A stretch of 48,090 nt of DNA. Origin: Pyrinomonadaceae bacterium (GTDB lineage: Bacteria > Acidobacteriota > Blastocatellia > Pyrinomonadales > Pyrinomonadaceae). The DNA lies in NCBI GenBank assembly GCA_035494575.1, contig DATJGV010000220.1:1-48090 (forward strand), in the 5' to 3' direction. Shown piece after piece: positions 7,469-47,834 of the stretch. Position 1 is the stretch's first letter. Each line of letters starts with the position of its first letter. Below the pieces are notes generated by a model. That model did not search any database and was not told where the DNA came from. It saw only the letters and a program-made list of their open reading frames with translations. The position numbers and the translations under genes were made by a program.

Positions 7469-10400
7469 ATGATTAAACATGACTCAAAACGAAGTTCGTT
7501 CTTCATGTGGGCCGTAATGTTGGTCACCTTGTTTGCGGGCCAAGGTGTTTTTGCACAAACCGGAACCTCCTCCATAAGCGGAACCGTTAAGGACGCGCAA
7601 GGGAACGTTGCGGTTGGAGCGACAGTCACACTCTCAAACCCTGAAACCAACTTCAACCGGACACAGGTAACCAATGGCGAAGGAAATTTTTCGTTTTTGG
7701 GAATCCCGCCGGACACTTATTCGCTCGAGGTGAACGCGTCCGGCTTCAAGAAAGCCGTTTTAAAGGACGTTCAGGCCCTTGTTGCAAAGCCAACTGAGGT
7801 CAACGTTCAAATCGAAGTCGGCAGCGTTTCCGAATCCGTTACGGTTTCGGCTGAGGGAAGTGAAGCTCTCATTAACACGCAGGACGCATCTTTGGGCAAC
7901 AATTTCCAGTCGCTCCAGATCACTCAACTCCCGCTCGAAGCTCGCGATGTTACATCTCTCTTAACGCTTCAGCCGGGATCAACCCGCGAGGGCTATGTTG
8001 CCGGAGCGCGCGCAGATCAGTCAAACGTGACACTTGATGGCGTCGATATCAACGAGGCCCAGACAAATCAGGTCGGATCGCCGAAAGGTGGCGTCGGTGC
8101 CGACTCGCTTAACGGTTTCTCGGACTCGCCAACGGCGGGTACGGTTCTCAGGCTTAATGGCGAAGCAGTTGAAGAATTTCGTGTAACTACAACAAATCCG
8201 AACGCGTCGATGGGAAGGTCGTCCGGTGCTCAGATCTCATTGATCACTAAAACCGGCACTAATAGTTGGCGTGGCGCGGCCTTCCTGTATAACCGTGATA
8301 CCGCATTCACCGCGAATGATTTTTTCAACAATCGGAGCGGCATCGAACGTCCGAATCTTAAGCGAAACGTTTATGGCGGTGCAGTCGGAGGACCGATCAT
8401 CAAGGACCGCGCGTTCTTCTTTTATAGTTATGAAGGCCGCCGGGATCGCAGTCAGGCAACATTTCTGTCACGCGTCCCCTTGGCAAGCATGGGCCGGGGC
8501 GAACTACGCTACTATAACGACGATGGCGGGGTAACAACTCTCACCTCAGCGGATATGGCAACGATATTTCCTGATCTGAACGGGGTTAATCCTGCGGCCG
8601 TTTCCGCCTTAGCGGCTGCTGCTGCAAAATATCCTGCGAACGATTTTTCAATCGGCGATGGATTGAACGTTGCGGGTTACAGGTTTAACGCTCCGCTGCC
8701 GATTGATCTGAATTCACACGTGGCACGCCTCGATTTCAATTTAACGTCAAAACAGCAGGCGTACGTCCGCTTCCAGTATCAGCAAGACGACATCGGCGGT
8801 AGCCGTTTGTTTCCGGACACTCCATCACAAGATACGTGGTCGCACCCGCTCGGGCTTGTCGTCGGCCATAATTGGACGATTGGCAATAACCTTATTAACA
8901 CGTTCAGGTACGGCCTGACGAGAGAAGCCTTTACAGCTGGAGGGGATTCGTCCAAGAACGAGATTTATTTCCGAAATATCTTCTTTCCCGTTAACGACTC
9001 GCGCGAAACATCTCGCAAGACCCCGGTTCAGAATATTGTTGACGATGTGTCGTGGATCAAGGGTAGCCATACCTGGCAGTTCGGTACGAATATCCGGATC
9101 ATCCGTAACCACCGCGTAAGCTACGCGAATGCGTTCGATACTGCGTACACGAACCCGTCCGGCTGGGAAGACAGTGGCAGCCCGATAACCGACGCCATCA
9201 ATGAATTTTCGGTTATTGGTTCGGACAGCGATGAGTCCGATGTTCGCAGTGCGGCGACTGCGCTTTTAGGCCGCCTGACAGCGTTTACCGGCCGCTTTAC
9301 ATTCGACGGTGACGGAAATCTTCTACCGGCAGGAGCGCCCAGCGTACGCGATTTTGCAACGGAAGAGTATGACTTTTATGCTCAAGACATCTGGAAAATA
9401 AAATCGAACCTGACACTCACGGCTGGCCTTCGATATAGCCTGAGCCGTCCTGTTTATGAAAAGAACGGTCTCGAGGCAAGGCCTAACATTTCCCTATCCG
9501 AATTTTTCCGCCGCAGGCTTGCTGGCGCTGCATCGGGTGTTCCCTACAATGATCCCCTGACGGTTGAGCTGTCTGGTCCGGCAAATGGCAAAGCTCCACT
9601 TTACGACTGGGACACTAATAATTTCCAGCCGCGTATCGCGCTTGCATGGTCGCCAAATTTCAAACAGGGATTCCTGGCCACTCTCTTTGGCAAGAATAGC
9701 GAATCGGTTTTCCGCGGTGGTTTTGGCATCTCGAACGACTACTACGGCCAGCAGTTAGCGGTTGCGTTCGACTTGAACAATAAGCTGGGCTTTGCTTCGC
9801 AGGTAACGCTGGCTGCGGGAACATGCAATACCACAACCGTAATTTGTCCGTTATTTACCTCTTTTTCACAGGATGTGAGAGGTTTGCTTCCCGATTTCGG
9901 CTTGCCTGTTCCGGGATCGTTATCGTTCCCTCAAATGGCTCCCGTGGACAGCAGACGCCGTATCGAATCGTCAATCGATTCCGAGATCAAGGCTCCGATC
10001 CATTATAGCTGGAACTTTACATACGAAAGGACACTTCCGAAGGGATTTGTTGTTTCTGCTTCGTATGTCGGACGGGCCGCGCGTAACCTCCTGGCGTCGC
10101 GGGACGTTGCCGCTCTGAATAATCTTGTCGATACCAAATCCGGTATGGATTGGTACACAGCGGCCGGAATGTTGGAGGACTACCGCCGACAATATTCGCC
10201 TACAATAGATCCGAGCCTTCCTAGATCCGTACGAGATCCGTTATATCAGACCGCAATAAGATCTGTTCCGGCGATTCCGTACTTCGAGAATTTGTTCGCG
10301 AGTGTTCCCGGTTTCGCTGGCTGGATGTTAGGAGGCAGCCGGGCATCGATGGCCCAAAATGCAACTCAGGCTGTTTTTGGTGACGCATTGATCTTTAACG

Positions 10401-11305
10401 ACAACGACTGGACAACGACGCAAAATGACATTGACGGATTTCTTTTAGACAGCGGGCGTAACCCCCTATTCTACCATCCGCAATATGCAGCCCTGTCGGC
10501 GATCAGTTCAGTCGGAAATTCAGATTACCACGCGGGTACATTCACCCTCAGGCAACGGCTTGGTGAAGCATTCACGATGGATCTGAATTATACCATTTCG
10601 CATTCGATGGACGATGCGTCCGGCCTGCAGACAAGCGGCAACTTCGGAACATCGTTTATCCTTAACCCGATACGCCAAAAGGACAACTACGCAAACTCCG
10701 ATTTTGACGTTCGGCACTCATTCAACGCTAACGCTATCTGGCAAATCCCCGTCGGCCGCGGACGGTGGTTGATGAGAGATGTTAACAAGATAGTCAACGG
10801 ATTTATCGGCGGATGGCAGTTGTCCGGTATCTTCCGATGGAATTCGGGACTACCGATCTGGTCTCCGTACGATACTCTGTGGGCAACCAATTGGAATGTC
10901 CAGAGCAGTGGCGTGAGGATCAGACCGGTTCAGTCTTGCGCGACTCGGGGCGAGGACGGAGATTTTGCCAGCTTGTTCGGCTGTGACCGTACTGGTGCCT
11001 ACCAGAGCTGGCGAAACGCCAAACCTGGCGAGACCGGAGACCGCAACGTGATCCGGTTACCAGGTTACAGTGCTCTTGATCTGGGCTTAGGAAAGTCATT
11101 CAGAATGCCTTGGGGGGAAAATCACCGGCTGCAATTTCGTGTTGAGGCTTTTAATGTGCTTAATGTGCAAAGCTTTGGTGAAACAGCAAATCAGCAGATT
11201 CAGATAGACCCACAAGCAAACAACCCGGCCGGAGATTGGTGGAATTTTACCGACATTCAGGGATCACCTCGCGTGATTCAGTTTGGCTTGCGGTACAGCT
11301 TCTAA
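7469..11305 (+). CDS. TonB-dependent outer-membrane receptor with N-terminal carboxypeptidase-regulatory-like domain
   Basis: 1278 aa with signal peptide ..LFAGQGVFAQ. The CarboxypepD_reg-like segment is GTVKDAQGNVAVGATVTLSNPETNFNRTQVTNGEGNFSFLGIPPDTYSLEV. Plug-like region DVTLDGVDINE. C-terminal beta-barrel signature FGLRYSF. Confidence 0.88.
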   Translation: MIKHDSKRSSFFMWAVMLVTLFAGQGVFAQTGTSSISGTVKDAQGNVAVGATVTLSNPETNFNRTQVTNGEGNFSFLGIPPDTYSLEVNASGFKKAVLKDVQALVAKPTEVNVQIEVGSVSESVTVSAEGSEALINTQDASLGNNFQSLQITQLPLEARDVTSLLTLQPGSTREGYVAGARADQSNVTLDGVDINEAQTNQVGSPKGGVGADSLNGFSDSPTAGTVLRLNGEAVEEFRVTTTNPNASMGRSSGAQISLITKTGTNSWRGAAFLYNRDTAFTANDFFNNRSGIERPNLKRNVYGGAVGGPIIKDRAFFFYSYEGRRDRSQATFLSRVPLASMGRGELRYYNDDGGVTTLTSADMATIFPDLNGVNPAAVSALAAAAAKYPANDFSIGDGLNVAGYRFNAPLPIDLNSHVARLDFNLTSKQQAYVRFQYQQDDIGGSRLFPDTPSQDTWSHPLGLVVGHNWTIGNNLINTFRYGLTREAFTAGGDSSKNEIYFRNIFFPVNDSRETSRKTPVQNIVDDVSWIKGSHTWQFGTNIRIIRNHRVSYANAFDTAYTNPSGWEDSGSPITDAINEFSVIGSDSDESDVRSAATALLGRLTAFTGRFTFDGDGNLLPAGAPSVRDFATEEYDFYAQDIWKIKSNLTLTAGLRYSLSRPVYEKNGLEARPNISLSEFFRRRLAGAASGVPYNDPLTVELSGPANGKAPLYDWDTNNFQPRIALAWSPNFKQGFLATLFGKNSESVFRGGFGISNDYYGQQLAVAFDLNNKLGFASQVTLAAGTCNTTTVICPLFTSFSQDVRGLLPDFGLPVPGSLSFPQMAPVDSRRRIESSIDSEIKAPIHYSWNFTYERTLPKGFVVSASYVGRAARNLLASRDVAALNNLVDTKSGMDWYTAAGMLEDYRRQYSPTIDPSLPRSVRDPLYQTAIRSVPAIPYFENLFASVPGFAGWMLGGSRASMAQNATQAVFGDALIFNDNDWTTTQNDIDGFLLDSGRNPLFYHPQYAALSAISSVGNSDYHAGTFTLRQRLGEAFTMDLNYTISHSMDDASGLQTSGNFGTSFILNPIRQKDNYANSDFDVRHSFNANAIWQIPVGRGRWLMRDVNKIVNGFIGGWQLSGIFRWNSGLPIWSPYDTLWATNWNVQSSGVRIRPVQSCATRGEDGDFASLFGCDRTGAYQSWRNAKPGETGDRNVIRLPGYSALDLGLGKSFRMPWGENHRLQFRVEAFNVLNVQSFGETANQQIQIDPQANNPAGDWWNFTDIQGSPRVIQFGLRYSF

Positions 11306-23964: not shown

Positions 23965-26469
23965 TTAATTGTTGGGTGGCGTGTAAGCCGAAAATAAGGA
24001 TTGAATTTCGTCGGCTGACAGCGCCCGATTAAAGAAATAAATCTCGTCAAGCGCTCCGGAGAAAAATTGCCTGCTTCCTGAACTCAAGGCGCCAAATTCC
24101 AAATTCGATGAATTAGATAGATCAGTCGGAACCCTTTCCGGTGTAGTCGACCGCAAAACTCCATCGATATAAAGATACAGTACGTTTGATTGCCTTACAG
24201 CAGCGATATGATACCAAATCCCGACCTGAAAATTTGACTTCGGATATCTGGCATCATTGTCGCTAGTTTGAACGATGTTTCGAGTTTCGACCCCAATCCC
24301 GCCAATTTCATCACAAAAATCACAGATATTAAACAGCCACCCATTGTAAGAACCTTGATCCCCATAGTTATCTTTATGAACCATACCGTTTGTATTGTTT
24401 TCTAAATTATCAAACATTGCAAAGAATGTGATCGTGAAATCGCCAGTTCCGACATTTAAGTTGGATGAATTCGGAACGGATACTCGGCCGTCCACACCAT
24501 CGAAGCTGAATGCCTGACCCGAAACGCCAGGCTTATAAGTGGCGCCATTGAGCAGTTCGCCATCGTTGCCACCGAGTAGATCGTACGCGTTACCGTCGGC
24601 CGGCCAATAACTTACGGGCCCGCTCTGCAGGCTGTCAGATAGCGGAATCTTTGTCACTGCTACGTAAGCCCCCGTTGAGTCGCTGTTAAAGCCGTTGCCG
24701 CCGTAGCCGACCGAGAAATCGACCGTATCCCCTGCGGCTAACTCACGGGAAAGAACAAAGGCTTTCGGTATGCCAAATCCGTTAATATTTTCGTTGAATA
24801 AGACTAATTTAGAATTGAGCACAATTACTGCATCGGTAGTTGTTCCGCTGAGGTCGATTCCTTGAAAATGACCGTCGAATCTATACACTCCCTTTGCGGG
24901 GGCTGTCCATCGCAGGACACTCCGCTGCCCTTCCTTTCCCGGATGCAGATCTAATAGATCAGGCGGTAGAAAGACGCCTCCAGCCGTTATCGCAGTATCG
25001 CTGGAGTTGTGCGTTATCAATGGGTGCGGCGAATCCTGGTTTTGCCATTTATCAATTGGCATTCCCGTAATCTTGAAGTAGCGGTCATGGTCTGATGACG
25101 TAAATAAAGAGAACAAAGAGATATCGTCTGATGGGGTGTAACCGTAGGACCAGTTACCGCTCGGATTTGACGTAATGGAAAAGTCTGTAACGGCGTTCTC
25201 GGTGAAGCCGATCGGCGGTTTTGCTGGATTCGATTTCGTAAGTTGAAGAAATACAAGCATCGACAAAACCGCAATTCCTAAGATCAAGATTGCTTTGATA
25301 AGGTTTGCTTGTAAGTATCGTCCAAACCCACTCAGAAGACTGCCAGACCGAAGCTCAGAAGCCGATTGCCTCCGAGCATCCGACATTTCTCTTATTTTTG
25401 TAAGGTCGTTAAGCATGTCGTCGATATTTCCGTATCGGCCCGACTTCTCTTTGGAAAGAGCGAATGCGATGATGGTGTCAAGTTCCGCCTGAAATGGGAG
25501 GCGGAGATTTCTAATCGGTTCTGGTGACGACATCAGGACCGCCGCGATCTGATCGATCTTCGTCAAGCCTCTAAAAGGTAGCTCCCCGGACACCATTTCG
25601 TAAAGGAGAACACCGAGGCTCCAGATGTCGGTTTGGGTACCTACTTCGGAGCCGCGGATCTGTTCCGGTGACATATATGCGGGAGTGCCGACCAGCGCAC
25701 CGAGCTCAGTGCTCATATCCACCGTTAGTTTAACGTTTTCGCCACCTTGAATATGAATAGTTCCGTCGCCGATCGGACTGACCAGCTTTGCCAATCCAAA
25801 ATCCAAAACCTTTATGGCTCCGTTGGGTGTGATGACGATGTTTTCCGGCTTGATATCCCGGTGGACGACCCCAGCGGTGTGTGCCGCGCCGAGCGCCGAC
25901 GCGATCTGGATAACTATATCAATAGCCTCCCCCAACGGGATCGATACGGCTAAGTGTTTTCTAAGGTTAATGCCTTCAACAAACTCCATGACGATGAGAT
26001 TTTCACCGTCGATCTCGCATACCTCATACAATTTGGCGACGTTTGGATGCACAACTCGTGACACCGCCTTCGCTTCTTTGCGAAAACGTCTTATCCGTTC
26101 AGGATCGAGGGCGAATAGCTTGTTTAAGAGTTTGACGGCGACCTTGCGTCCAAGCTTCTGGTCCTCGGCCGCATATACTTCGCCCATTCCGCCACGGCCT
26201 ATTAACCTCCCTAACTTGAAATGGCCAATAGTCTCACCAGTCCGTTTATCAACGTCGTTTCCGTCCAACATTTGTACGCCAATGTCAAAAACCGGCGTAT
26301 CCAAGCTTGTAGACGGAGATTCATGCTCCGCCAGCAACGCTCTGATCTCGGAGAGCATCGCTTCGTCGCCCAGGCAATTGTCCCGCAGAAAATTTTCGCG
26401 CGCCGGGCCGTGAAATTCGGCAGCAGCGAAAAAAATCTCCTCTATTTTTTGCCAGCGTTCTTTTTGCAT
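23965..26469 (-). CDS. Transmembrane Ser/Thr protein kinase with extracytoplasmic LamG-like (concanavalin-type) domain
   Basis: The track start at 26478 is TTG; ATG at 26469 gives MQKERWQKIEEIF. Kinase motifs GRGGMGEVY, VAVKLL, HRDIKPENI, DFGLAK and GTPAYMSPEQ. One TM helix (AILILGIAVLSMLVFL). The C-terminal segment has a LamG-like signature: FSGALDEIYFFNRALSADEIQ. Confidence 0.88.
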   Translation of the reverse strand: MQKERWQKIEEIFFAAAEFHGPARENFLRDNCLGDEAMLSEIRALLAEHESPSTSLDTPVFDIGVQMLDGNDVDKRTGETIGHFKLGRLIGRGGMGEVYAAEDQKLGRKVAVKLLNKLFALDPERIRRFRKEAKAVSRVVHPNVAKLYEVCEIDGENLIVMEFVEGINLRKHLAVSIPLGEAIDIVIQIASALGAAHTAGVVHRDIKPENIVITPNGAIKVLDFGLAKLVSPIGDGTIHIQGGENVKLTVDMSTELGALVGTPAYMSPEQIRGSEVGTQTDIWSLGVLLYEMVSGELPFRGLTKIDQIAAVLMSSPEPIRNLRLPFQAELDTIIAFALSKEKSGRYGNIDDMLNDLTKIREMSDARRQSASELRSGSLLSGFGRYLQANLIKAILILGIAVLSMLVFLQLTKSNPAKPPIGFTENAVTDFSITSNPSGNWSYGYTPSDDISLFSLFTSSDHDRYFKITGMPIDKWQNQDSPHPLITHNSSDTAITAGGVFLPPDLLDLHPGKEGQRSVLRWTAPAKGVYRFDGHFQGIDLSGTTTDAVIVLNSKLVLFNENINGFGIPKAFVLSRELAAGDTVDFSVGYGGNGFNSDSTGAYVAVTKIPLSDSLQSGPVSYWPADGNAYDLLGGNDGELLNGATYKPGVSGQAFSFDGVDGRVSVPNSSNLNVGTGDFTITFFAMFDNLENNTNGMVHKDNYGDQGSYNGWLFNICDFCDEIGGIGVETRNIVQTSDNDARYPKSNFQVGIWYHIAAVRQSNVLYLYIDGVLRSTTPERVPTDLSNSSNLEFGALSSGSRQFFSGALDEIYFFNRALSADEIQSLFSAYTPPNN

Positions 26470-26488
26470 CGACGGCAACTCGAAAGCC

Positions 26489-27052
26489 TTATTTTCTCAT
26501 TTGGCGGGCAAGCCACGCTCGTGCCAGGTTCCAATGTCGCGTAACCGCGGCAGGGGTCATATTTAACACCTCGGCCACCTCGGTTGTGGTAAGCCCGCCA
26601 AAATACCGCATCTCCACTATTCTTGCCTTGACCATGTCAAAATTAGAAAGACACGTCAATGCCTCGTCAAGGGAGATTAGTTCTGTGGTTTTTTCCGTAG
26701 AAATTATTTCCACGTCGTCAATATTCAAAACGAAGGCACCACCAGCCCGCTTGCCCGTCATTCGGTCCCGGGCATGGTTCATCAAAATCCGGCGAATAAT
26801 GATCGAAGAGACCGCAAAAAAATGACTTTGGTTTTTCCATTGCACATCGCGTTGACCTATAAGCCTCATGTAGGCTTCGTTAATAAGATCGGATGTCATG
26901 AATGAGTGGTTTGCATTTTCCCGCTTCAAAAACCGCCGGGCGATTCGCTTAAGTTCGGACTCAACAAGCGGAACGAGGCGTTCCAAAGAAACCTCGTCCC
27001 CATTGCTCCACGCTACTAACAATTCTGTAATTTGTTCCTCAGTTTCGACCAT
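26489..27052 (-). CDS. ECF-type sigma-70 factor of the kinase-associated subgroup
   Basis: The N-terminal ITELLVAWSNGDEVSLERLVPLV..ELKRIARRFL is typical of the ECF group found next to Ser/Thr kinases. Region 2 (LINEAYMRL) and region 4 (MRYFGGLTTTEVAEVLNMTPAAVTRHW) are present. No anti-sigma gene is adjacent. Confidence 0.88.
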   Translation of the reverse strand: MVETEEQITELLVAWSNGDEVSLERLVPLVESELKRIARRFLKRENANHSFMTSDLINEAYMRLIGQRDVQWKNQSHFFAVSSIIIRRILMNHARDRMTGKRAGGAFVLNIDDVEIISTEKTTELISLDEALTCLSNFDMVKARIVEMRYFGGLTTTEVAEVLNMTPAAVTRHWNLARAWLARQMRK

Positions 27053-39246: not shown

Positions 39247-39565
39247 AAAATGTCTCGAAATACTGCCTTCTGTTGCCTGGTTTTTTTGGGTTTAACTAAG
39301 ATACAACAAAATGGCGAAAATGTTGAGAGTTTTTTGAACAGCCAGTAAGCAAATTTATCGTGTCCGAAACCTTCTGCAAGGAAGCGAAGTTGAAAGTTCG
39401 CAACACGACATAAATCTCAGACTGGAGAGATCTATCTATTGTTTGCCACAAGCGTGTGGTTTATAATTTTCATATTGCCACGAGGAAGGAGGCTGTTTTT
39501 CCGATATACGGGAATGCTTCCGGCTTTTTGACAAAATCCAGGAATGAACAGAGGGAGATCCTAAA

Positions 39566-39776: not shown

Positions 39777-40055
39777 CTAAACTGAGGTGTTGGTGCGACC
39801 GCCAAAGATCAGCCGTACGATCAACAAAAGTATGATCGCACCGAGTATCGACATTATCCACCCAGCCGTGTAGTTTTCGCTGGCCCACAAAGCTCGGGCA
39901 ATGACACCGCCTATGAAGGCTCCGGCTATTCCGAGCAGCGCCGTCAGCAGCCAGCCTAATGCTCCCTCTGGTAAGGCTTCTTTCCCCGGCAATAATAATC
40001 TCGCAATAACTCCGACAATCAAACCAACGATTAGCTGTCCCAAAATGTGAAACAT
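39777..40055 (-). CDS. GlsB/YeaQ/YmgE-family stress membrane protein
   Basis: 92 aa with three Gly-rich TM helices (LIVGLIVGVIARLLLPG, LLTALLGIAGAFIGGVIA, ILGAIILLLIV). GGAGA RBS present. Confidence 0.85.
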   Translation of the reverse strand: MFHILGQLIVGLIVGVIARLLLPGKEALPEGALGWLLTALLGIAGAFIGGVIARALWASENYTAGWIMSILGAIILLLIVRLIFGGRTNTSV

Positions 40056-40131: not shown

Positions 40132-40647
40132 CTAGACCTCGACCTTTCTATGAGCAACGATCCGCAGGAGCCCGTTGATGATAAGGTGAAGGATCATATA
40201 AGCGACAATGGCGACAATTATCGGCAAAGCCAGTGTGAAGCCGTTGTCCGACGGGCTTGGCACAATTCCTCTGAACGGGCCGTAAAACGGATTCGAGATC
40301 GTGTTTATGAACCGCACAAAGCCGGCGCTTTCGCGGGCTCCGAACAGTTCCAACAGCAACCGGATAGCGAGGATCGCGTAGATTATCATAAAAATGTAAT
40401 CGACGATTTGCGACACCCTCGCCGCGGCTCGTCCACGTTCGATCTCCCGCTCGGTTTGAGCAACCTCGCCCAGGGCTTTTTCTCTCATTCCCGCGGCAAC
40501 GTCCTCAACGTAGTTTTCCTGCGATGCCGTGCGTTGATCTGCGTTCGCAATAATATCGCCGCGAACACCCGACTCGACGTTGGATTTCACCGTCTCGTAA
40601 TTTGCGGCGCGCTGAGCTTCTTCGCGTTCGAGTTTGTCGTCAACCAT
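40132..40647 (-). CDS. YggT-family membrane protein with an ~85-aa charged N-terminal extension
   Basis: The C-terminal half reads IVDYIFMIIYAILAIRLLLELFGA..FINTISNPFYGPFRGIVP..LALPIIVAIVAYMILHLIINGL (YggT-like). Its ATG overlaps the upstream stop by 8 nt. Confidence 0.7.
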   Translation of the reverse strand: MVDDKLEREEAQRAANYETVKSNVESGVRGDIIANADQRTASQENYVEDVAAGMREKALGEVAQTEREIERGRAAARVSQIVDYIFMIIYAILAIRLLLELFGARESAGFVRFINTISNPFYGPFRGIVPSPSDNGFTLALPIIVAIVAYMILHLIINGLLRIVAHRKVEV

Positions 40648-40939
40648 TTACGTTTGCCGCTCCTTTTTTATCGTTCTTCGTTTCTTCGCGTCCATGTGCC
40701 GTGTCTTTATGTTCAGGAGCTCCGGCAATGTCACGCTGATTCGGATCGCCCTTGGTCTCGTCCCCGCGAAGCGTTTGCCTTAAAACGCCGTTCGGGTCAC
40801 GATTGCTTGCCTCGTCGGTGATGTCCTCGATGTCTTCCTTGGTCAATCCCTGCGGATTTCCTTCAAGCTGTTCCTCGCTCAGCCCTTCGCGCTCTTCCTG
40901 ATACGGTGGCTGGTAGTCCTTCACTTTTTTCTCCTGCAT
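40640..40939 (-). CDS. Highly charged, probably disordered hydrophilin-like protein (99 aa)
   Basis: The track start at 40993 is GTG. The ATG at 40939 sits just after GGAGGGGAG. The sequence is dominated by E/D/K/Q/G/N (MQEKKVKDYQPPYQEEREGLSEEQLEG..) and has no hydrophobic core. Confidence 0.55.
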   Translation of the reverse strand: MQEKKVKDYQPPYQEEREGLSEEQLEGNPQGLTKEDIEDITDEASNRDPNGVLRQTLRGDETKGDPNQRDIAGAPEHKDTAHGREETKNDKKGAANVNG

Positions 40940-41008
40940 GCTCCCCTCCATTCGTTTTGGGAGAAAAAGATCAGTGGGCCACCTTGGACCCACCGATCTG
41001 GTTATTGA

Positions 41009-42988
41009 TCAAGGTACGTAGCCAACATTATTTGGCGACGTCGCCGTTATCGTAAATGTCGAGCCGTTTGAAAGCTCGATATTGTCGCGACCCTGTATCA
41101 GGACACTGCCGGCGCCTGCTCCGGCTCCGACCGCAGCTCCGATCGCGGCACCTTGTCCGCCGCCGGCGATCGCACCGATGATCGCACCGACCGCGGCGCC
41201 GATACCTGCCCGTGTCGCTGTCGTCGTGGTTTGATTGCTGTCACGAATCGCTCCTTCATTATTTATCGAAACGTTGTCTCCATTCAGCGGATGCACCGCG
41301 TCGATCAATCCGGCAAAGCGGTAGGTTTGTCCATTGGTGAGCCGGATCGTATCGAAATCAAGCGAAACGTTTGCTCGTCCCGTCAATCGTCCCGATCTCT
41401 CGACGCTTGCAACACGGCCCTCTATGATCGCCCCGCGATACTGAAAGGGCGACGTAACGTTCATCGTGAAACGGTCGCCAACCTGCGAGGTGCGAGTGTC
41501 GATGTTGTTTCTCAACGTCGCTTCGATACGTGTGCCGTTCGGGATGTAGAAATCATAATTTCCGCCGGTGTTACTTCCCGGATAGTTCCCGTTATTAACG
41601 TTTGACCATCTCGCAACACTGTCGATCTTGTCATAAACACTGTTTACGGTGATGGTCTCGTTGCGATTTTCGAGAAAGATGCGGCGCGAAACGCGAAGCC
41701 TATTGTCCCCGGTCGTTTCGAAATTGACGTTAAATTCGTTACCACGGTCGCCCTGGTAATTGACCTCGATGCCGTTATTGTCGGTCGTGGCCGTCGTTCG
41801 TGTCGTCCGTCCGCGATTGTTCGTCTCGGTGCGGGTGACGCCGTCAGCCTGAAAAGTAACTTGGCGCGAAAGACTCGACGCCATGGTTACCGAACGGCCG
41901 TTCTTTTCAATGGCGATCATATCCGGCGGAGTTAAACGCCGCTCGAGATTTCGCCGTGCGTTATCACGCTGCGTACCTGTCGGATAGATGTTGATCGATC
42001 TGTCAATGACATTTTCAACCCGGTCGCTCGCCGAGGTATCCAATCGATAGGTTCCCGTTAATCTGGCATCCAGACTCCCGCCCGGATAGTTGCCCGGATA
42101 ACCACCCGGATAGCCTCCGGTTCCCGGATACGGCGGGAGAGTACGATTCCAGTTCCAGCTGACGCTGTAGAGATTTGCAAGTGTGTCCAGATCGTTTCGC
42201 AGCCCGGTCCATTCATTCTCAGCCCGAGTAGCAAGCCTGTTTCTTGCCATGAACCGGTCGATGTAAGCGGCCTGTGTTAAAACGGCATTGACGTCGTCGT
42301 AAACCGGCTGCCTGGCGTCGAATTCCGTTCTTAGCCGATCGGTCGCGGTTTCAAAGCCATCGATATATGCGAACACGTTGTCTTCGCGCTGCGTATTGTT
42401 CAGTCTGCTGCGGTCAAGCGCAGTGTTCATTTCGTTCTTGAACCTATCGGTTCTGGCTTCGATCTGACGAATCACATTTCGGGCCTGAACCTCATTTACG
42501 TTTCCCGGATAACCCGGCGTCGGATTTGTCGGATACTGGTTCCAGTTCCAACTCACATCGTAGTAACGCGCCAGAGTATTAAGATCGGTACGGATACTGA
42601 TCCACTGATTCTCGGCGCTGGTTCCCAGGCTATTCTGCTCCATGAACTGGTTAATATTACTCGCGCGGGCCAGCACGTCGTTCACTTCGTTAGTAACCGG
42701 CTGGCGTGAGTTGATCCGGCGAAGCAGAGCGCCTGTCGAATTTTCAAAATCGAGAATGTACCCCCGCACGGTATCCTCCGTGCTGCTGTTATTCCATCGG
42801 CCTGTGTTCAGCACGCCATTCATGGTGCTCTGAAAACGGTTGGTCTTCATCTCGATTCTGGTAAGCAGGTTCCTGGTTTGCGTGTCGGTGACCCGATACG
42901 GCGAAACCTGCGCGTTTGTCACTGCGGCGCTGCTTAAAACAAACAGCGCGCAGGCAAACAGTAAGAGTATTTTGATAGGCCTTTTCAT
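41009..42988 (-). CDS. Secreted protein with two tandem ~150-aa helical repeats, a beta-rich middle and a C-terminal glycine zipper
   Basis: ATG at 42988 lies after GAGGAG and gives signal [27 protein letters not shown]. Repeats 1 and 2 both end in ..[12 protein letters not shown] / ..[12 protein letters not shown] followed by GYPG-rich linkers. C-terminal zipper: [34 protein letters not shown]. Confidence 0.75.
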
Positions 42989-43071
42989 AACGTTTCTCCT
43001 CAATCTAGTTAGAATGTGCGCGTAGGTCGTAACCGGGTAGAGAACGCGCACGAAATACATGGAAAGAGTTC

Positions 43072-43086
43072 GCAAAAGTTATGCCA
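43072..43086 (-). promoter_or_regulatory. Sigma-54 (-24/-12) promoter for the 41009..42988 operon
   Basis: The reverse strand reads TGGCATAACTTTTGC, matching TGGCAY-N5-TTGC with correct GG-N10-GC spacing. It lies ~85 nt upstream of ATG 42988. Confidence 0.6.
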
Positions 43087-43226
43087 GTCGATTTTTGAGT
43101 GCCAGGAAGTATTGTGATCACAGGCTTTGTAACGATGTTTGGATTTGAAAGCTAATCAAAGGCGGATTGAAAACCTGTACCGAATTGATGCAGAAAACGA
43201 CAGATCAGGGTGAGAGCTTCGGGAAA

Positions 43227-43242
43227 TGGCATCGGAATTGCA
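43227..43242 (+). promoter_or_regulatory. Sigma-54 (-24/-12) promoter for the 56-aa membrane peptide gene
   Basis: TGGCATCGGAATTGCA is a full consensus match and ends 48 nt upstream of ATG 43290. Confidence 0.65.
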
Positions 43243-43289
43243 CGGGAGCTTCTCGTAGTTCTTATAAATAATTTTCAGGAGAATATTTT

Positions 43290-43460
43290 ATGTCAGAGGA
43301 AAATAATACGGGTAACAATCTAATATGGGCGATCACGACGATCATCATCGTGGTGATCATCGCGGGAGCGTTGTATTACAGCGGATTTTTAGGAGGTACG
43401 AAGAGGCAGAAGATCGACATAAACGTTAAAACTCCAGCGGCGTCCAACTCAAATCCGTAA
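43290..43460 (+). CDS. Unannotated 56-aa single-pass membrane peptide
   Basis: Below the track cutoff. AGGAG at 43277..43281 lies 8 nt before the ATG. Translation: MSEENNTGNNLIWAITTIIIVVIIAGALYYSGFLGGTKRQKIDINVKTPAASNSNP. A hairpin terminator follows. Confidence 0.55.
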   Translation: MSEENNTGNNLIWAITTIIIVVIIAGALYYSGFLGGTKRQKIDINVKTPAASNSNP

Positions 43461-43478
43461 CGCCGCAACAGATCATGT

Positions 43479-43512
43479 AAGGCCGACGGGTTTGCTAGTC
43501 GGCCTTTTCTTC
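43479..43512 (+). terminator. Terminator hairpin for the small peptide gene, overlapping the stop codon of the convergent activator gene
   Basis: AAGGCCGAC (43479..43487) pairs with GTCGGCCTT (43498..43506), followed by TTCTTC. Confidence 0.55.
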
Positions 43513-45024
43513 TATCTTGTGGCGTTTGATCATGCCGTACAATCGCGGCCTGTACAGACCGAGGAGATTTGCGGCCGCCTGCTTATTACCTTTCGTTCGC
43601 CGCAAAGCCGCGGTCACAACTCCATTTTCAAGCTCATTAAATATATCCTTCTGGTCGACACCGTCTTCAGGTTCCGGAAGTTTATCGACGATAAGTTTAC
43701 CGATCTCCTGAAAAAGGTCCTTGCTATCACCGTTTTGTCCGACCGAAATATCAAGATCGGGCAGCGGTGTCCGCTCCGTTTCATAGCTTGGCAAATACGT
43801 TCCCATCGACGGCGTCGTTACAGTCTCGGGTTGTTGCCCGCCGGCGCCGACTGCCACAGCCGCACTTCTCGCTATATCGAGTTTTTCGATCTTTCGATTC
43901 TTGCTAAGCAGAACTGCACGTTCGATCACGTGTTGCAATTCGCGAACATTTCCACGCCAGTTATAATTCAGCATCTGATCGTACGCAGATTGCGAAAATT
44001 CCAGATCCTTTCTCTTATATTTGTCCGCGTAGATGTGCAGAAAATGCTCCGCAAGCATCGAAACATCCTCCATCCGCTCGCGAAGAGGAGGGATCATTAT
44101 CTCGATCGTGTTGATCCTGTAATAAAGATCTTCGCGCAGGAACCCCTCCTGTATCGCCTCGAAAGGCGTACGGTTCGTGGAACAAATAAGGCGAAAGTCC
44201 GCCTCTTGAGCCTTGTCACTGCCAACACGGTAATAAGCCTTTTCCTGCAGGATCCGAAGAAGCTTAGGCTGAACGTCAACGGGCATTTCCGCGATCTCGT
44301 CCAGGAGTAAGCTGCCCGCTGCCGCCTGGCCGATGAAGCCGACCTTATCGGCGTGTGCGCCGGTGAACGATCCTTTCACGTGGCCGAACAACTGCGATTC
44401 GATAAGGTCCTTTGGCAATGCGGAACAGTTCACCTTTACAAACGGCTTATTCGATCTGCGGCTCTTATAGTGGATAGCATTCGCGATCACTTCCTTACCT
44501 GTACCCGATTCGCCCAGGATGAGAATATTCGCATCCGATTCGGCTACGTTCTCGATGATCTCGTAGATCTGCTGCATCGAACGGCTGCCGCCGATGATGC
44601 CTTCGTAAGAGGTCTTGCTTGACAGCTTGCCGCGGAGTTCCTGAATTTCCCGCGCCTGCTGCTTACGCTCCACTGCTTTCGTAATAAGCACCAGGAGTTC
44701 GTCGAATTCGACAGGCTTTTCGATGTAATAAAATGCTCCGGCCTTGGTCGCCTCGATGGCTTTTTCCATCGAACCAAAGCCGGTGATCATAATGATCTCG
44801 GTTTGCGGCGCGATCTCCTTCGACCGCTTGACCATCTCGATACCGCTTATGTCCGGTAAATTAAGGTCAGTTAAAATAATGTCAAAATCGTTTTCGCGGA
44901 CGAGTTCGAGTCCCTTTGTGCCGCGCTCTGCCGTCACGGTCTCAAAGCCTTCGGACTGTAACTGGAAAGAGAGGAGTTCCAAGGTTACCTTATCGTCGTC
45001 CACAACTAATGCTTTATTAGCCAT
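43495..45024 (-). CDS. Sigma-54-dependent response regulator (NtrC family bacterial enhancer-binding protein)
   Basis: REC domain (LVVDDD.., DIILTDLNLPD), AAA+ domain (GESGTGKE, GSFTGA as the GAFTGA variant, ELFGH-like QLFGHVKG) and a C-terminal Fis-type HTH (NKQAAANLLGLYRPRLYGMIKRH). Confidence 0.93.
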   Translation of the reverse strand: MANKALVVDDDKVTLELLSFQLQSEGFETVTAERGTKGLELVRENDFDIILTDLNLPDISGIEMVKRSKEIAPQTEIIMITGFGSMEKAIEATKAGAFYYIEKPVEFDELLVLITKAVERKQQAREIQELRGKLSSKTSYEGIIGGSRSMQQIYEIIENVAESDANILILGESGTGKEVIANAIHYKSRRSNKPFVKVNCSALPKDLIESQLFGHVKGSFTGAHADKVGFIGQAAAGSLLLDEIAEMPVDVQPKLLRILQEKAYYRVGSDKAQEADFRLICSTNRTPFEAIQEGFLREDLYYRINTIEIMIPPLRERMEDVSMLAEHFLHIYADKYKRKDLEFSQSAYDQMLNYNWRGNVRELQHVIERAVLLSKNRKIEKLDIARSAAVAVGAGGQQPETVTTPSMGTYLPSYETERTPLPDLDISVGQNGDSKDLFQEIGKLIVDKLPEPEDGVDQKDIFNELENGVVTAALRRTKGNKQAAANLLGLYRPRLYGMIKRHKIEEKAD

Positions 45025-45277
45025 AAATTCCTCTGAGGGTCACTTATCGTTATTGTTTATATTGTATCAAATCTGGACACTTTCTGAACTACGTTTTAGA
45101 GAGGTATCGAAGCAGGAACCTGACGTGAAGAGGCTCGTCCCCTTTATCTTACCTCTTCACGCCAGCCACGCTCCCCGGATCCCCATCTGTAGTCGTCTGG
45201 CCACCGGTGAGCAAAACCGTAACTCAAAACCTTCGCAGCAAAGCTAAACCGCAATTCAAAGATTGCTTTTAAGCAAT

Positions 45278-45293
45278 GGCAAAGGCCGTGCCA
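45278..45293 (-). promoter_or_regulatory. Sigma-54 (-24/-12) promoter upstream of the activator gene itself
   Basis: The reverse strand reads TGGCACGGCCTTTGCC, matching TGGCACG-N4-TTGC. It lies ~255 nt upstream of ATG 45024. Confidence 0.6.
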
Positions 45294-45585
45294 GTATCTC
45301 CATGTGTTGAGCAATAAGGGCTTAGAGGTCAAAACGCTTGAAGAGGGTGATAGCATCGATCCCGGATTGCGTATTATAACCATACACGCCGCTAAACAAG
45401 CATTTAATGCGTTGCGTCATCGTGATGGCTCGTACCGATTCAATACTTGCCTGATCGACCACGGCCCGCTGATAAATGCGTAAATAAAAGTAAAAACAAG
45501 ATTTATATACCGAGGCACGCAATTTGATATGGTTGGCTCCAGTTGCTCGACAACAATATTTTTCGAACAAGGGGGAGGAACTCAG

Positions 45586-45735
45586 ATGCTTGAAACAATA
45601 ATTGTTATTCTGCTGGTATTATGGCTGGTCGGTCTGGTTGCAGGCGAAACTTTTGGCGGTATTTTACACGTTCTGCTCGTTGCGGCTCTGATCGTCTTTT
45701 TGTTCAGATTATTAGCAGGACGACGCGTTGTATAG
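45586..45735 (+). CDS. lmo0937-family small membrane protein (49 aa)
   Basis: An internal ATG at 45586 sits behind GGGGGAGG. Translation: MLETIIVILLVLWLVGLVAGETFGGILHVLLVAALIVFLFRLLAGRRVV. Confidence 0.7.
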   Translation: MLETIIVILLVLWLVGLVAGETFGGILHVLLVAALIVFLFRLLAGRRVV

Positions 45736-45848: not shown

Positions 45849-47834
45849 ATGGCTCAGAGTATTCAAGAGATCTCGGATAAGACGAGAAATTCCGATATCA
45901 ATTCGGAAACGATCGGTATATTCGAGAACATATTCGATTTTTTTGGAATGCTGGATGCCAACGGCAACGTTCTGTGGCTGCGGGGCAAGGTGTTTGACGA
46001 GATCAATGTCGATCCGGATCTGCTAAAGGATCAAAAGTTTTCGGAAACCGTTTTTTGGCAATCCTCAGAAAACACGGCGGGACTACTCGACAAAGCGATT
46101 CGAAGATCAGCCGCCGGACAGGTTGTACGGGAATTATTGAACTTTCGCCTTACAGCGGACAATAAGTTCGCTATCGAAGTTACGCTTCAGCCCCTTGACG
46201 GAACGAACCGGGATGGCCGCATTTTCATTTCGGCACAGCACGTTTCCGAACGCGAAAGCCGCGTTGAATATTATAAGCAGGATGTCGAGGAGCTCTTGTT
46301 TGCGGCCGAAAACGCCGAGATCGGCCTGTGGTACTGGGATCTCGTCGACAGCAAGATCTTTTCAACCCCGAAGTGCAACGAGCTTTTCGACCTTCCGGCT
46401 TACGACGTTCTCACATACGAGAAGTTCATCGAGCGCGTGCATCCCGACGACCGCGATCGCGTTGAGCAATCGCTGCAAAAGGCTCATGTGAACGGCACGA
46501 AGTATAACGAAGAATACCGCATCGTTTATTCCGACGGACGCATTGAATGGCTCTCGTGCGAAGGAAAATCGTTTTTGGATCCTAACGGAAATCCGCAAAA
46601 AATGACCAGCGTCGTTCGTAAAATAACCGAGCAGAAACTGGCGAACGAGGAGCTTTCGAAGGTTTACGACCGCGAGAAAAAGGCCCGCGACGAAGCCGTC
46701 GAAGCCAATCGCGCGAAGGATTTCTTCCTGGCCTTTGTTTCACATGAGCTTCGTTCGCCGCTTAATGCGATCCTCGGTTGGGCAAAGATACTTCTGACAA
46801 AGACGCTGGATGAAGAAACGCGAAAAAATGCCCTTCAGACGATCGAACGAAGTGCGCGCGTGCAAACAAAGCTGATCAACGACCTTGTTGATTCGGCCCG
46901 TGTCGCGTCAGGTAAGCTCAGGCTGGAATATCAGCCCGCGAATCTATACGAGATACTTAACATCTCATATCACTCACAAAAGCCGAGTGCGGAAGCTCAG
47001 GGTGTTAAATTCGAATTTATCGCAAAAAATAAAGACGTGACGTTGTTTGGCGACGCAGGACGGCTGCAGCAGGTTTTTACTAATTTGATCTCGAACGCGA
47101 TAAAGTTTACTCCCGAGGGCGGTCACGTCTCGATCGAGCTTGATACCGATCCGACCTCGGCGATCGTGCGGGTTCGCGACAACGGCATCGGCATCAGTCC
47201 GGACGCATTGCCAAATATTTTTCGTCAATTTTCGCAAGGCGATATCGGCTCCGAAAGACAATCGGGTGGTTTGGGCCTTGGGCTTTCAATCGTTAATATT
47301 CTGGTCGCAAAACACGGCGGAACCGTTAAGGCAGAAAGCAAAGGTCTAGGGCAAGGAGCGTTATTCACCGTACGACTGCCTGTCACACGTTCTGTAACGG
47401 CAGCCGTGGAACAGCACGTGGCGGCGTCGATCGACCGCAAGCCCTTGCAGGGAATAAAGATCTTGCTGGTTGAGGACGACTCGGACTCGCGTGAGGTTTT
47501 GCAGTTGTTCCTCGATCAAAGCGGAGCGACAACGATGAGCGCCGCCTCGGCAAAAACGGCCGTTGCCTTGCTGAAAACATCGGTTGGGAACCTGCCCGAC
47601 GTGATAATTTCGGACCTTGCAATGCCGGACGAGGACGGCTATACGATGATGAGCCGCATCCGGGCAATGGAACCCGAATCAGGCGGCCGCATTCCCGCAC
47701 TCGCGCTCAGTGCGTTTGCGACGAATGAAAGCAAACAGCGGGCGCTCGAATCGGGCTTTCAACTCTACAATACCAAGCCGTTCGAACCTGATCTGATAGT
47801 CCACGACATCAGGGCTCTTCTCGGCAGGAATTAA
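45849..47834 (+). CDS. Hybrid sensor histidine kinase (PAS-PAS-HisKA-HATPase-REC), cytoplasmic
   Basis: H-box FVSHELRSPLNAILGW, N-box FTNLISNAIKFT and G-boxes RDNGIGI / GGLGLGLSIV. The C-terminal receiver has ILLVEDD..VIISDLAMPDEDG..ALSAFA. No TM segments. Confidence 0.92.
   Translation: MAQSIQEISDKTRNSDINSETIGIFENIFDFFGMLDANGNVLWLRGKVFDEINVDPDLLKDQKFSETVFWQSSENTAGLLDKAIRRSAAGQVVRELLNFRLTADNKFAIEVTLQPLDGTNRDGRIFISAQHVSERESRVEYYKQDVEELLFAAENAEIGLWYWDLVDSKIFSTPKCNELFDLPAYDVLTYEKFIERVHPDDRDRVEQSLQKAHVNGTKYNEEYRIVYSDGRIEWLSCEGKSFLDPNGNPQKMTSVVRKITEQKLANEELSKVYDREKKARDEAVEANRAKDFFLAFVSHELRSPLNAILGWAKILLTKTLDEETRKNALQTIERSARVQTKLINDLVDSARVASGKLRLEYQPANLYEILNISYHSQKPSAEAQGVKFEFIAKNKDVTLFGDAGRLQQVFTNLISNAIKFTPEGGHVSIELDTDPTSAIVRVRDNGIGISPDALPNIFRQFSQGDIGSERQSGGLGLGLSIVNILVAKHGGTVKAESKGLGQGALFTVRLPVTRSVTAAVEQHVAASIDRKPLQGIKILLVEDDSDSREVLQLFLDQSGATTMSAASAKTAVALLKTSVGNLPDVIISDLAMPDEDGYTMMSRIRAMEPESGGRIPALALSAFATNESKQRALESGFQLYNTKPFEPDLIVHDIRALLGRN

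Follow-up and report, generated by a model that had tools for sequence, protein, structure and literature searches.

In Escherichia coli and Salmonella, the ZraPSR system joins a sensor kinase, ZraS, to an activator, ZraR, and the divergent zraP and zraSR units are read from sigma-54 promoters with common ZraR sites. We analyzed a locus of comparable layout in a 48,090-nucleotide (nt) stretch from a Pyrinomonadaceae bacterium (Acidobacteriota; contig DATJGV010000220.1 of assembly GCA_035494575.1; the whole stretch is called the window below), in which three sigma-54-type promoters, (a), (b), and (c), surround the gene of an NtrC-family activator. Very likely, this region forms the core of a two-component, sigma-54 regulon that is specific to the Pyrinomonadaceae lineage. 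In the circuit that we propose, the phosphorylated NtrC-type regulator (43495-45024) would bind 17-bp dyads as a dimer or oligomer; the dyads would act from about 85-100 bp upstream of the -24/-12 elements, where the AAA+ domain of the regulator would open the sigma-54 holoenzyme complexes.

The module resembles ZraPSR in having a two-component enhancer-binding protein, divergent sigma-54 promoters with a common upstream dyad, signaling genes under sigma-54 (here a CHASE-domain kinase in relatives, and possibly the activator), and a secreted helical-repeat envelope protein as the main target. However, its targets are not homologous to those of ZraR (Pfam finds no ZraP/CpxP-type domain in them, only Gly-zipper_YMGG or none), its activator scores 331 bits at the NCBIfam ZraR model (cut-off 760), its sensors are CHASE or PAS kinases and not ZraS, and its 56-aa peptide and DUF883 protein have no Zra counterpart. 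The NtrBC system of enteric bacteria, with its glnAp1-glnAp2 promoters, shares with the module a REC-AAA+-HTH_8 activator, 17-bp dyads about 100-140 bp upstream of the -24/-12 element (often as pairs about 70 bp apart), and sigma-70-type and sigma-54 promoters in tandem before a regulatory gene; but the module has no nitrogen-assimilation genes, its activator stays below the NtrC cut-off (385 versus 559 bits), and its dyad, TGTAT-N7-ATACA, differs from the NtrC dyad (TGCACC-N5-GGTGCA). The PspF/pspABCDE/pspG system is likewise sigma-54-dependent and divergently arranged, with small membrane or envelope products, but PspF lacks a receiver domain and is controlled by PspA, whereas the module has no PspA, PspB, or PspC homologues according to Pfam. 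The best equivalog score of the activator in NCBIfam was for AtoC (406 bits, cut-off 714), and the cut-offs of GlrR, LuxO, and PspF were likewise not reached. By these comparisons, the module belongs to no named orthologous system.

Pyrinomonadaceae and other Blastocatellia are abundant in dry, nutrient-poor soils; to our knowledge, almost nothing is known about their gene regulation. Our literature searches on sigma-54 in Acidobacteria or Pyrinomonadaceae returned nothing relevant, and no description of this module. The module offers a concrete, testable circuit (an activator, a 17-bp site, three to four promoters, and a few lineage-specific envelope proteins) and a first functional handle on the glycine-zipper, 56-aa peptide, and DUF883/ElaB-like protein families, and its promoter and operator sequences are usable for reading metatranscriptomes or building reporters. 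It is a well-supported but conventional kind of bacterial gene switch that reveals no new principle, and it agrees with the broader view of sigma-54 as a controller of the cell exterior (Francke et al., 2011; PMC3162934). Compared with the initial annotation of the window, our analysis corrects the enhancer and the operon boundaries and explains promoter (c) by its evolutionary history.

Promoters and their conservation

We searched the motif TGGCA-N7-TGC across the full window, on both strands and with coding DNA included, and obtained only the matches at 43072-43086 (minus strand), 43227-43241 (plus strand), and 45279-45293 (minus strand), plus a fourth at 45277-45291 (plus strand), which is site (c) read in mirror image, that site being nearly palindromic. 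Promoter (a) (TGGCATAACTTTTGCG, 43071-43086, minus strand; the motif itself, read directly at 43086-43072 on that strand, is TGGCATAACTTTTGC) lies 82 nt 5′ of the ATG (42988) of the glycine-zipper gene, with a predicted start at about 43060. Promoter (b) (TGGCATCGGAATTGCA, 43227-43242, plus strand) lies 47 nt 5′ of the gene for the 56-aa peptide (pep56), with a predicted start at about 43253, and promoter (c) (TGGCACGGCCTTTGCC, 45278-45293, minus strand) lies 254 nt 5′ of the activator ATG. All three fit a GG and a GC 10 nt apart within TGGCAC-N5-TTGCW, and (c) matches this consensus best in the orientation that faces the activator. We rejected the plus-strand reading of (c), toward a DUF5670 gene: its -12 is weaker (GTGC), the relatives fit only the activator-directed strand, and the distance to the DUF5670 gene varies among them. 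Direct reading thus agrees with the initial annotation on the sequences and positions of the three promoters, the 140-bp gap between (a) and (b), and the gene coordinates; its count of only three non-coding matches is also correct, and the coding DNA adds none, the mirror of (c) being the sole extra match.

The motif count by itself is not significant: the chance expectation is 1.31, and four or more matches were reached in 8 of 100 shuffles. The argument from rarity that was implicit in the initial annotation is therefore weak, and the case rests on position and conservation. It is this count, four matches against 1.31, that would favor explaining the promoters as chance matches, in AT-rich DNA between genes, to a motif that is short and degenerate. 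What goes beyond chance is that the three sites cluster within 2.2 kb, on the correct strand, at 47-82 nt (a, b) or 254 nt (c) before genes, and, most of all, that they are conserved. A weighted consensus scan of the window ranks them first, third, and fourth.

Related loci were collected by alignment of glycine-zipper homologues, giving 80 loci from species-representative genomes, nearly all labelled Pyrinomonadaceae, Blastocatellia, or Acidobacteriota (L numbers below are our locus and contig handles); together they supply the 1.10 Mb of related DNA on which our motif counts are based. For each locus and gene we took the best-scoring GG-N10-GC site upstream, on the coding strand only. A -24/-12 element is present 55-104 nt before the glycine-zipper gene in 62 of 72 loci, before pep56 in 48 of 51 (mostly 43-68 nt from the start codon), and at most 900 nt before the activator gene in 33 of 43 cases (32 of 42 related loci, and the window). 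The orthologous sites give the consensus sequences tGGCAcg..tt.TTGC for (a), TGGCAtt..atTTGCt for (b), and TGGCAcaa.caTTGC for (c). These three homologous positions hold 125 of the 168 TGGCA-N7-TGC matches in the 1.10 Mb; the other 43 are at about the chance level, and many of them are mirror images of palindromic sites. All three promoters persist in the close relatives of the window (protein identity 76-89%; L081-L084), even though four-fold degenerate sites are only 39-45% identical between the window and close relatives, that is, saturated; retention against such a background marks the three as genuine, selected sigma-54-type promoters. With the sites conserved at homologous positions across dozens of genomes despite saturation of neutral sites there, and with a positioned dyad and a sigma-54 activator gene co-occurring with them (see below), the explanation by chance is effectively refuted, and we give it next to no probability.

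Gene order is conserved together with the promoters: hybrid kinase, DUF5670, activator, pep56, an optional insert, glycine-zipper, hydrophilin, YggT, GlsB, and metallothionein-like genes. Conservation of promoters and gene order in related genomes, which the initial annotation had named as a check, was thus found in about 80 Pyrinomonadaceae loci. In the relatives' loci no sigma-54 site was found before the hydrophilin, YggT, metallothionein-like, DUF5670, or hybrid kinase genes; for GlsB, sites exceeded the threshold in only 3 of 25 loci, and all three were over 300 nt upstream of the gene and lacked a TTGC -12. Glycine-zipper paralogues outside the cluster (L025, L051, L059, L079, and possibly L080, a short contig) have neither a sigma-54 promoter nor an activator nearby, indicating that the promoter goes with the cluster copy and not with the protein family as such.

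The activator and the upstream dyad

The activator gene (43495-45024, minus strand) encodes an NtrC-family response regulator and enhancer-binding protein with REC, sigma-54 AAA+, and HTH_8 domains; PF00072, PF00158, PF25601, and PF02954 all score above their Pfam cut-offs (PF00158 with an E value of 8e-66). A GSFTGA loop can be read in its translation, and the orthologues have GAFTGA (L041, L070) or GSFTGA (L010). Among solved structures, it is closest to the Aquifex NtrC-family regulators 4l4u and 1ny5 (E about 1e-98) and next to LuxO. The domains, the loop, and the conserved sites bear out the earlier view that the promoters are grouped around an NtrC-family activator.

When gapped palindromes were counted without bias over the 220 nt preceding the promoters, TGTA-N9-TACA stood out, together with the nested GTAT-N7-ATAC. 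With at most one mismatch, this dyad is found upstream of 43 of 64 glycine-zipper promoters, 36 of 49 pep56 promoters, and 26 of 33 activator-side promoters, the background rate being 0.06 per 220 nt; there are 38 exact copies in the 1.10 Mb, the majority of them in these upstream regions. The consensus from 111 sites is TGTAT-n-AAWTT-n-ATACA (17 bp). The distance from the dyad centre to the TGG of the promoter is sharply peaked at 96-97 nt for the glycine-zipper promoter; for the activator-side promoter it is 83-85 nt, and a second copy at about 150 nt is frequent; for the pep56 promoter it is 60-125 nt.

The window contains two candidate upstream activator sites, each matching the dyad with one mismatch. 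Site 1 (TGTACCGAATTGATGCA, 43176-43192) is common to the divergent promoters (a) and (b), its centre lying at a distance of 98 nt from (a) and 43 nt from (b), counted to the TGG, and site 2 (CGTATTATAACCATACA, 45370-45386) has its centre 85 nt upstream of the TGG of (c). In a four-way footprint with L081, L083, and L082, site 1 and the promoters appear as conserved blocks and the spacer around them is scrambled; site 2 is kept in L082-L084 and has two mismatches in L081. The initial annotation had proposed another enhancer, the perfect palindrome TGTGATCACA (43113-43122) between (a) and (b). The palindrome is present, but matches to it with up to two mismatches occur only in 4 of 64 and 1 of 49 upstream regions; not being conserved, it is ruled out as the enhancer, and the conserved element is the TGTAT-N7-ATACA dyad.

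Since the same dyad stands at the activator-proximal and the target promoters, and since the helix-turn-helix segment of the activator is nearly invariant among the orthologues that we read, the adjacent activator is the most economical candidate binder, and we infer from these sequence patterns that it binds the dyads. A different enhancer-binding protein, encoded elsewhere, could act on these promoters instead, in which case the adjacent activator would control other genes and its co-location would be historical; several loci (for example, L007, L053, L060, L062, L072, and L075) fit this idea in keeping the glycine-zipper promoter with no activator within 8 kb upstream. We regard it as very unlikely, because the activator, pep56, and glycine-zipper genes are syntenic in most loci with enough flank, because one and the same dyad precedes both the activator-proximal promoter (c) and the target promoters, and because the paralogues without the promoter (L025, L051, L059, and L079) also lack a nearby activator.

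Several observations weigh against control by the adjacent activator or against parts of the proposed regulon. The genomes in which the glycine-zipper gene has its promoter and no activator lies within 8 kb show that adjacency is not obligatory and make another enhancer-binding protein conceivable. An RpoN-box peptide search for rpoN in the window and 1.2 Mb of fetched loci found none; we infer that sigma-54 is present in the host. Promoter (c) is unrecognisable in 10 of 43 loci, both dyads of the window carry a mismatch, and site 1 is nearer to the TGG of (b) than its counterpart in any relative (43 nt, compared with 61-206 nt). The inducing signal, finally, is only suggested, by gene content, to be envelope, osmotic, or desiccation stress: the neighbors include GlsB/YmgE, metallothionein-like, and YggT genes and, in relatives, DUF883/ElaB-like and Dps-like genes, so that a stress role would derive from the family names of neighbors only.

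Metagenome contigs were scanned for TGTAT-N7-ATACA-N70-100-TGGCAY-N5-TTGC in a search for further regulon members; among the matches listed, most came from unrelated bacteria, and the only module members were L146 and L200. Beyond the three promoter classes, the dyad-paired promoters in the 1.1 Mb of flanks are those of the CHASE kinase and one or two unassigned sites (e.g., L063 6715), which lends weak support to a compact regulon, as the annotation had called it. The metagenome scan also returned a recurrent protein of about 103-129 aa (..DVKIYGLCLERL.HQI....LLESYNTG..DDIIDILELYD) downstream of the same dyad and TGGCAY-N5-TTGC arrangement in contigs of unrelated bacteria (L086, L089, L111, L135, L150, L160, L163, L166, L176, and L203). 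In most of these contigs an enhancer-binding protein 31-37% identical to the activator of the window adjoins it; the arrangement is apparently a separate, widespread sigma-54 unit.

Proposed transcription units (a), (b), and (c)

Unit (a) would be a monocistronic mRNA for a secreted glycine-zipper envelope protein of 659 aa with a domain like that of fatty-acid-binding proteins. This protein (gene at 41009-42988, minus strand), the main target, has a signal peptide and, according to Pfam, a C-terminal YMGG-type glycine zipper; we found more than 1187 homologues, all from Acidobacteria/Pyrinomonadaceae where the source names the organism. In its AlphaFold (AF2) model (mean predicted local distance difference test score 65), the signal peptide is followed by two four-helix bundles (35-142 and 166-273), a beta-barrel (about 305-456), and a second beta domain, in which the glycine-zipper helices (596-622) sit. 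In Foldseek, a part of the model of about 150 residues, taken to be the predicted barrel at 305-456, matched fatty-acid-binding proteins (E 6.5e-5; template modelling score 0.67 on the target), and this suggests that the protein may bind a small hydrophobic ligand or lipid in the envelope. The predicted barrel also resembles lipocalin-like folds. In the 5′ untranslated region of the gene, a conserved block (GTGCGCGTTCTCTACCCGGTTAC...CGCGCAC, 43015-43050, minus strand) with a possible 7-bp stem lies just 3′ of the predicted start and is kept in L081, L083, and L082.

Right after the glycine-zipper stop codon we identified an intrinsic terminator (40960-40999, minus strand; hairpin region 40999-40968), consisting of a 13-bp stem followed by TTTTTCTCCC, that ends about 21 nt before the ATG of the next gene, for a hydrophilin (40640-40939, minus strand). 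A hairpin with a T-run stands at this place in 69 of 79 loci with unrelated stem sequences, and the same place combined with unrelated stems is the signature of a functional intrinsic terminator. By this pattern the glycine-zipper gene is probably transcribed for the most part as a monocistronic unit, and the hydrophilin gene and the YggT-like gene behind it (40132-40647, minus strand; YGGT domain in Pfam) must be supplied, in the window, by partial read-through or by an internal promoter.

The initial annotation had a different model for the whole region, in which (a) drives a glycine-zipper/hydrophilin/YggT operon, TGTGATCACA is the enhancer, and (c) autoregulates the activator through a long structured leader. 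The three genes are co-directional, as it said, and the roughly 21 nt between the terminator and the hydrophilin ATG leave no room for a separate promoter, which makes read-through plausible. As a single regulon unit, however, the series is not supported: a strong, conserved terminator interrupts it, the hydrophilin and YggT genes have no sigma-54 site in relatives, and in other clades they are 200-800 nt away from the glycine-zipper gene. Given the conserved terminator and this distance, the hydrophilin and YggT genes can be counted only as possible members of the regulon. In L010 an open reading frame (ORF; 10131-10637) without an attached sigma-54 site even lies between the glycine-zipper and hydrophilin genes; judged from its sequence alone, it looks Dps/ferritin-like, and as such it suggests a reinforced stress-island character of the neighborhood. 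The label of hydrophilin is itself a fair one, the protein being acidic, with 10.1% glycine and a grand average of hydropathy of -1.67 (hydrophilins have more than 6% glycine and high hydrophilicity).

Unit (b) would be a monocistronic mRNA for pep56, a 56-aa single-pass membrane peptide, transcribed divergently from (a) under the same enhancer. The pep56 gene (43290-43460, plus strand) encodes a protein with one hydrophobic segment, a single transmembrane helix. Its family comprises 317 homologous clusters, in which the proteins as called run from about 51 to 93 aa and most have 51-57 aa; the cluster members listed are 70-93% identical and carry no informative name, and no Pfam or NCBIfam family matches pep56. 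A hairpin (43480-43505) followed by TTTCTTCT can be read from the sequence in the interval from the pep56 stop codon to the convergent activator gene, and pep56 appears monocistronic. The earlier statement that the targets have no known function therefore stands for the glycine-zipper protein and pep56, both uncharacterised proteins of envelope/stress type.

Unit (c) would be a transcript that encodes a DUF883/ElaB-like, membrane-anchored stress protein in other genomes and that here has lost the ORF and retains just a conserved 3′ element. In at least 11 loci, an ORF of 125-174 aa lies between the equivalent of (c) and the activator gene, encoding an apolipoprotein-like helical region and a C-terminal membrane anchor of the DUF883/ElaB type (its matches to Pfam DUF883_C and NCBIfam ElaB are below threshold). 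No trace of a remnant of this ORF was found in the window. These comparisons indicate that promoter (c) ancestrally drove a DUF883/ElaB-like stress gene, which the lineage of the window has lost.

The 3′ element is a conserved segment of 56-59 nt (45124-45182, minus strand), composed of CCGGGGAGCGTG, 10 nt, and then a 10-14-bp hairpin with the loop AAAGGGG. In the loci that have the ORF, it directly succeeds the DUF883 stop codon and precedes a T-run; in the clade of the window, the hairpin has no U-tract. A search with nhmmer found the element at this position in about 19 loci and elsewhere only as one weak match, in L002, and Rfam has no match to the element or the leader. The whole-RNA fold of the (c) transcript is mildly more stable than those of shuffled sequences (z = -1.87). 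Among the window and three close relatives, identity is 0.92 in the -24/-12 element of (c), 0.96 in the 56-nt element, and 0.78-0.85 (window pairs; 0.87 for all pairs) from the sigma-70-type promoter (see below) to the ATG, compared, for window pairs, with 0.42-0.49 in the flanking spacers and 0.39-0.45 at four-fold sites of the activator gene. Without an ORF, the 56-nt element is constrained far beyond the needs of a terminator, and it stands as the one remaining lead at the locus.

The activator gene has a sigma-70-type promoter of its own (45061-45088, minus strand; TTCAGA-16-TACAAT with an extended -10, TGATACAAT), which would supply basal expression; the extended -10, TTTGATACAAT, is found 24-110 nt before the activator ATG in 30 of 44 loci. 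A DUF883 gene with its terminator, followed by a separate activator promoter, points to an ancestral logic in which a sigma-54-dependent stress gene ends and a constitutively expressed activator begins. Read-through from (c) into the activator, and hence positive feedback, is plausible in the clade of the window, where the hairpin has lost its U-tract, and unit (c) might feed the activator in this way. A TGT-N11-ACA dyad (one mismatch; 45063-45079) overlaps the extended -10 in 10 loci including the window, against an estimated expectation of about 1.5. This overlap hints that the activator may also repress its own sigma-70-type promoter, as NtrC does at glnAp1.

These findings bear on the leader that the initial annotation had placed downstream of (c). 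Its 10-bp hairpin exists (arms at 45124-45133 and 45152-45161), but it is to be identified as the 3′ element of the lost DUF883 gene; and autoregulation through (c), which had been taken as implied, is possible, with the hairpin lacking a U-tract, but in relatives (c) drives the DUF883-like gene and the activator has a promoter of its own. The absence of a U-tract in this clade is what the annotation's full model has in its favor here. With (c) standing, in at least 11 loci, before a DUF883-like ORF that has a terminator of its own, a conserved sigma-70-type promoter before the activator, a palindrome that is not conserved, a strong terminator behind the glycine-zipper gene in 69 of 79 loci, and hydrophilin and YggT genes 200-800 nt off in other clades (in L010 with the Dps-like gene in between), we find that model unlikely as a whole and prefer the circuit with separate units.

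Short transcripts that end in a hairpin and depend on sigma-54 and an NtrC-family activator are known from the small RNAs (sRNAs) GlmY (GlrR), Qrr (LuxO), and CrcZ (CbrB), which promoter (c) would resemble in this respect. It differs from them in that its RNA is predicted from sequence and has no Rfam match, and in that its element is the 3′ untranslated region of a coding gene in many relatives. It is possible, though we are inclined to doubt it, that (c) yields either a regulatory leader or a sigma-54- and activator-dependent sRNA with a length of about 105-145 nt, extending from roughly 45267 to 45124 (minus strand). The 56-nt 3′ element would be its functional part, maintained by strong purifying selection along with the promoter and the enhancer after deletion of the ORF. 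The element could be a trans-acting sRNA. It could instead work as a conditional terminator or antiterminator controlling read-through into the activator, an option supported by an upstream GGGGAG that might pair with the CUCUUC arm in competition with the GAAGAG arm.

Sensor kinases and neighboring genes

Between pep56 and the glycine-zipper gene, about 40 loci encode a membrane kinase of 613 aa with CHASE, HisKA, and HATPase domains (for example, L015 5847-7688 and L070 5948-7798); in about 20 of these, the kinase gene has its own -24/-12 element and a dyad about 96 nt upstream, common to the divergent pep56 promoter. This kinase is likely the cognate sensor in most relatives, and the majority architecture would have four sigma-54 promoters, with the sensor under positive feedback. 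When we sought a remnant of it in the window, only the shared catalytic domains of a PAS kinase were found. The ancestral module would thus have had a sigma-54-controlled CHASE kinase between (b) and (a), and its loss from the window and its clade, as the comparison suggests, would have brought (a) and (b) together and left the PAS hybrid kinase. The 140 bp between (a) and (b) are the shortest spacing seen; other loci in which the two genes are adjacent have 167-324 bp. It might also be that pep56 is an MgrB-like feedback modulator of the CHASE kinase; the window keeps pep56 without the kinase.

The PAS kinase next door was described correctly as a soluble hybrid kinase (45849-47834, plus strand): Pfam finds PAS, HisKA, HATPase, and REC domains and no HPt domain, and there is no hydrophobic segment. 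Its position is kept in about 45 loci, with no sigma-54 site upstream in relatives, and it is the only nearby candidate input in the window. Between it and the activator gene lies a gene for a DUF5670/lmo0937-family peptide (45586-45735, plus strand). On the other side of the module, downstream of the YggT-like gene, is the GlsB-like gene (39777-40055, minus strand; Transgly_assoc domain in Pfam). A weak Rfam match to alpha_tmRNA at 39259-39330 (minus strand) is probably spurious, as it reaches 22 bits where the gathering threshold is 50, and ARAGORN found no tmRNA there.

The second-ranked site of the weighted scan (TGGCACGAGCGTGGCT, 26526-26511, minus strand) was dismissed as a chance match: it lies inside the 3′ part of a gene for an ECF (extracytoplasmic function) sigma factor, and its -12 is TGGC, not TTGC. 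It stands 33 nt 5′ of the gene for an 837-aa Ser/Thr kinase with a Laminin_G_3 domain (region 23965-27052). Elsewhere, the window is ordinary chromosome with recA, an RND efflux pump, and peptidases.

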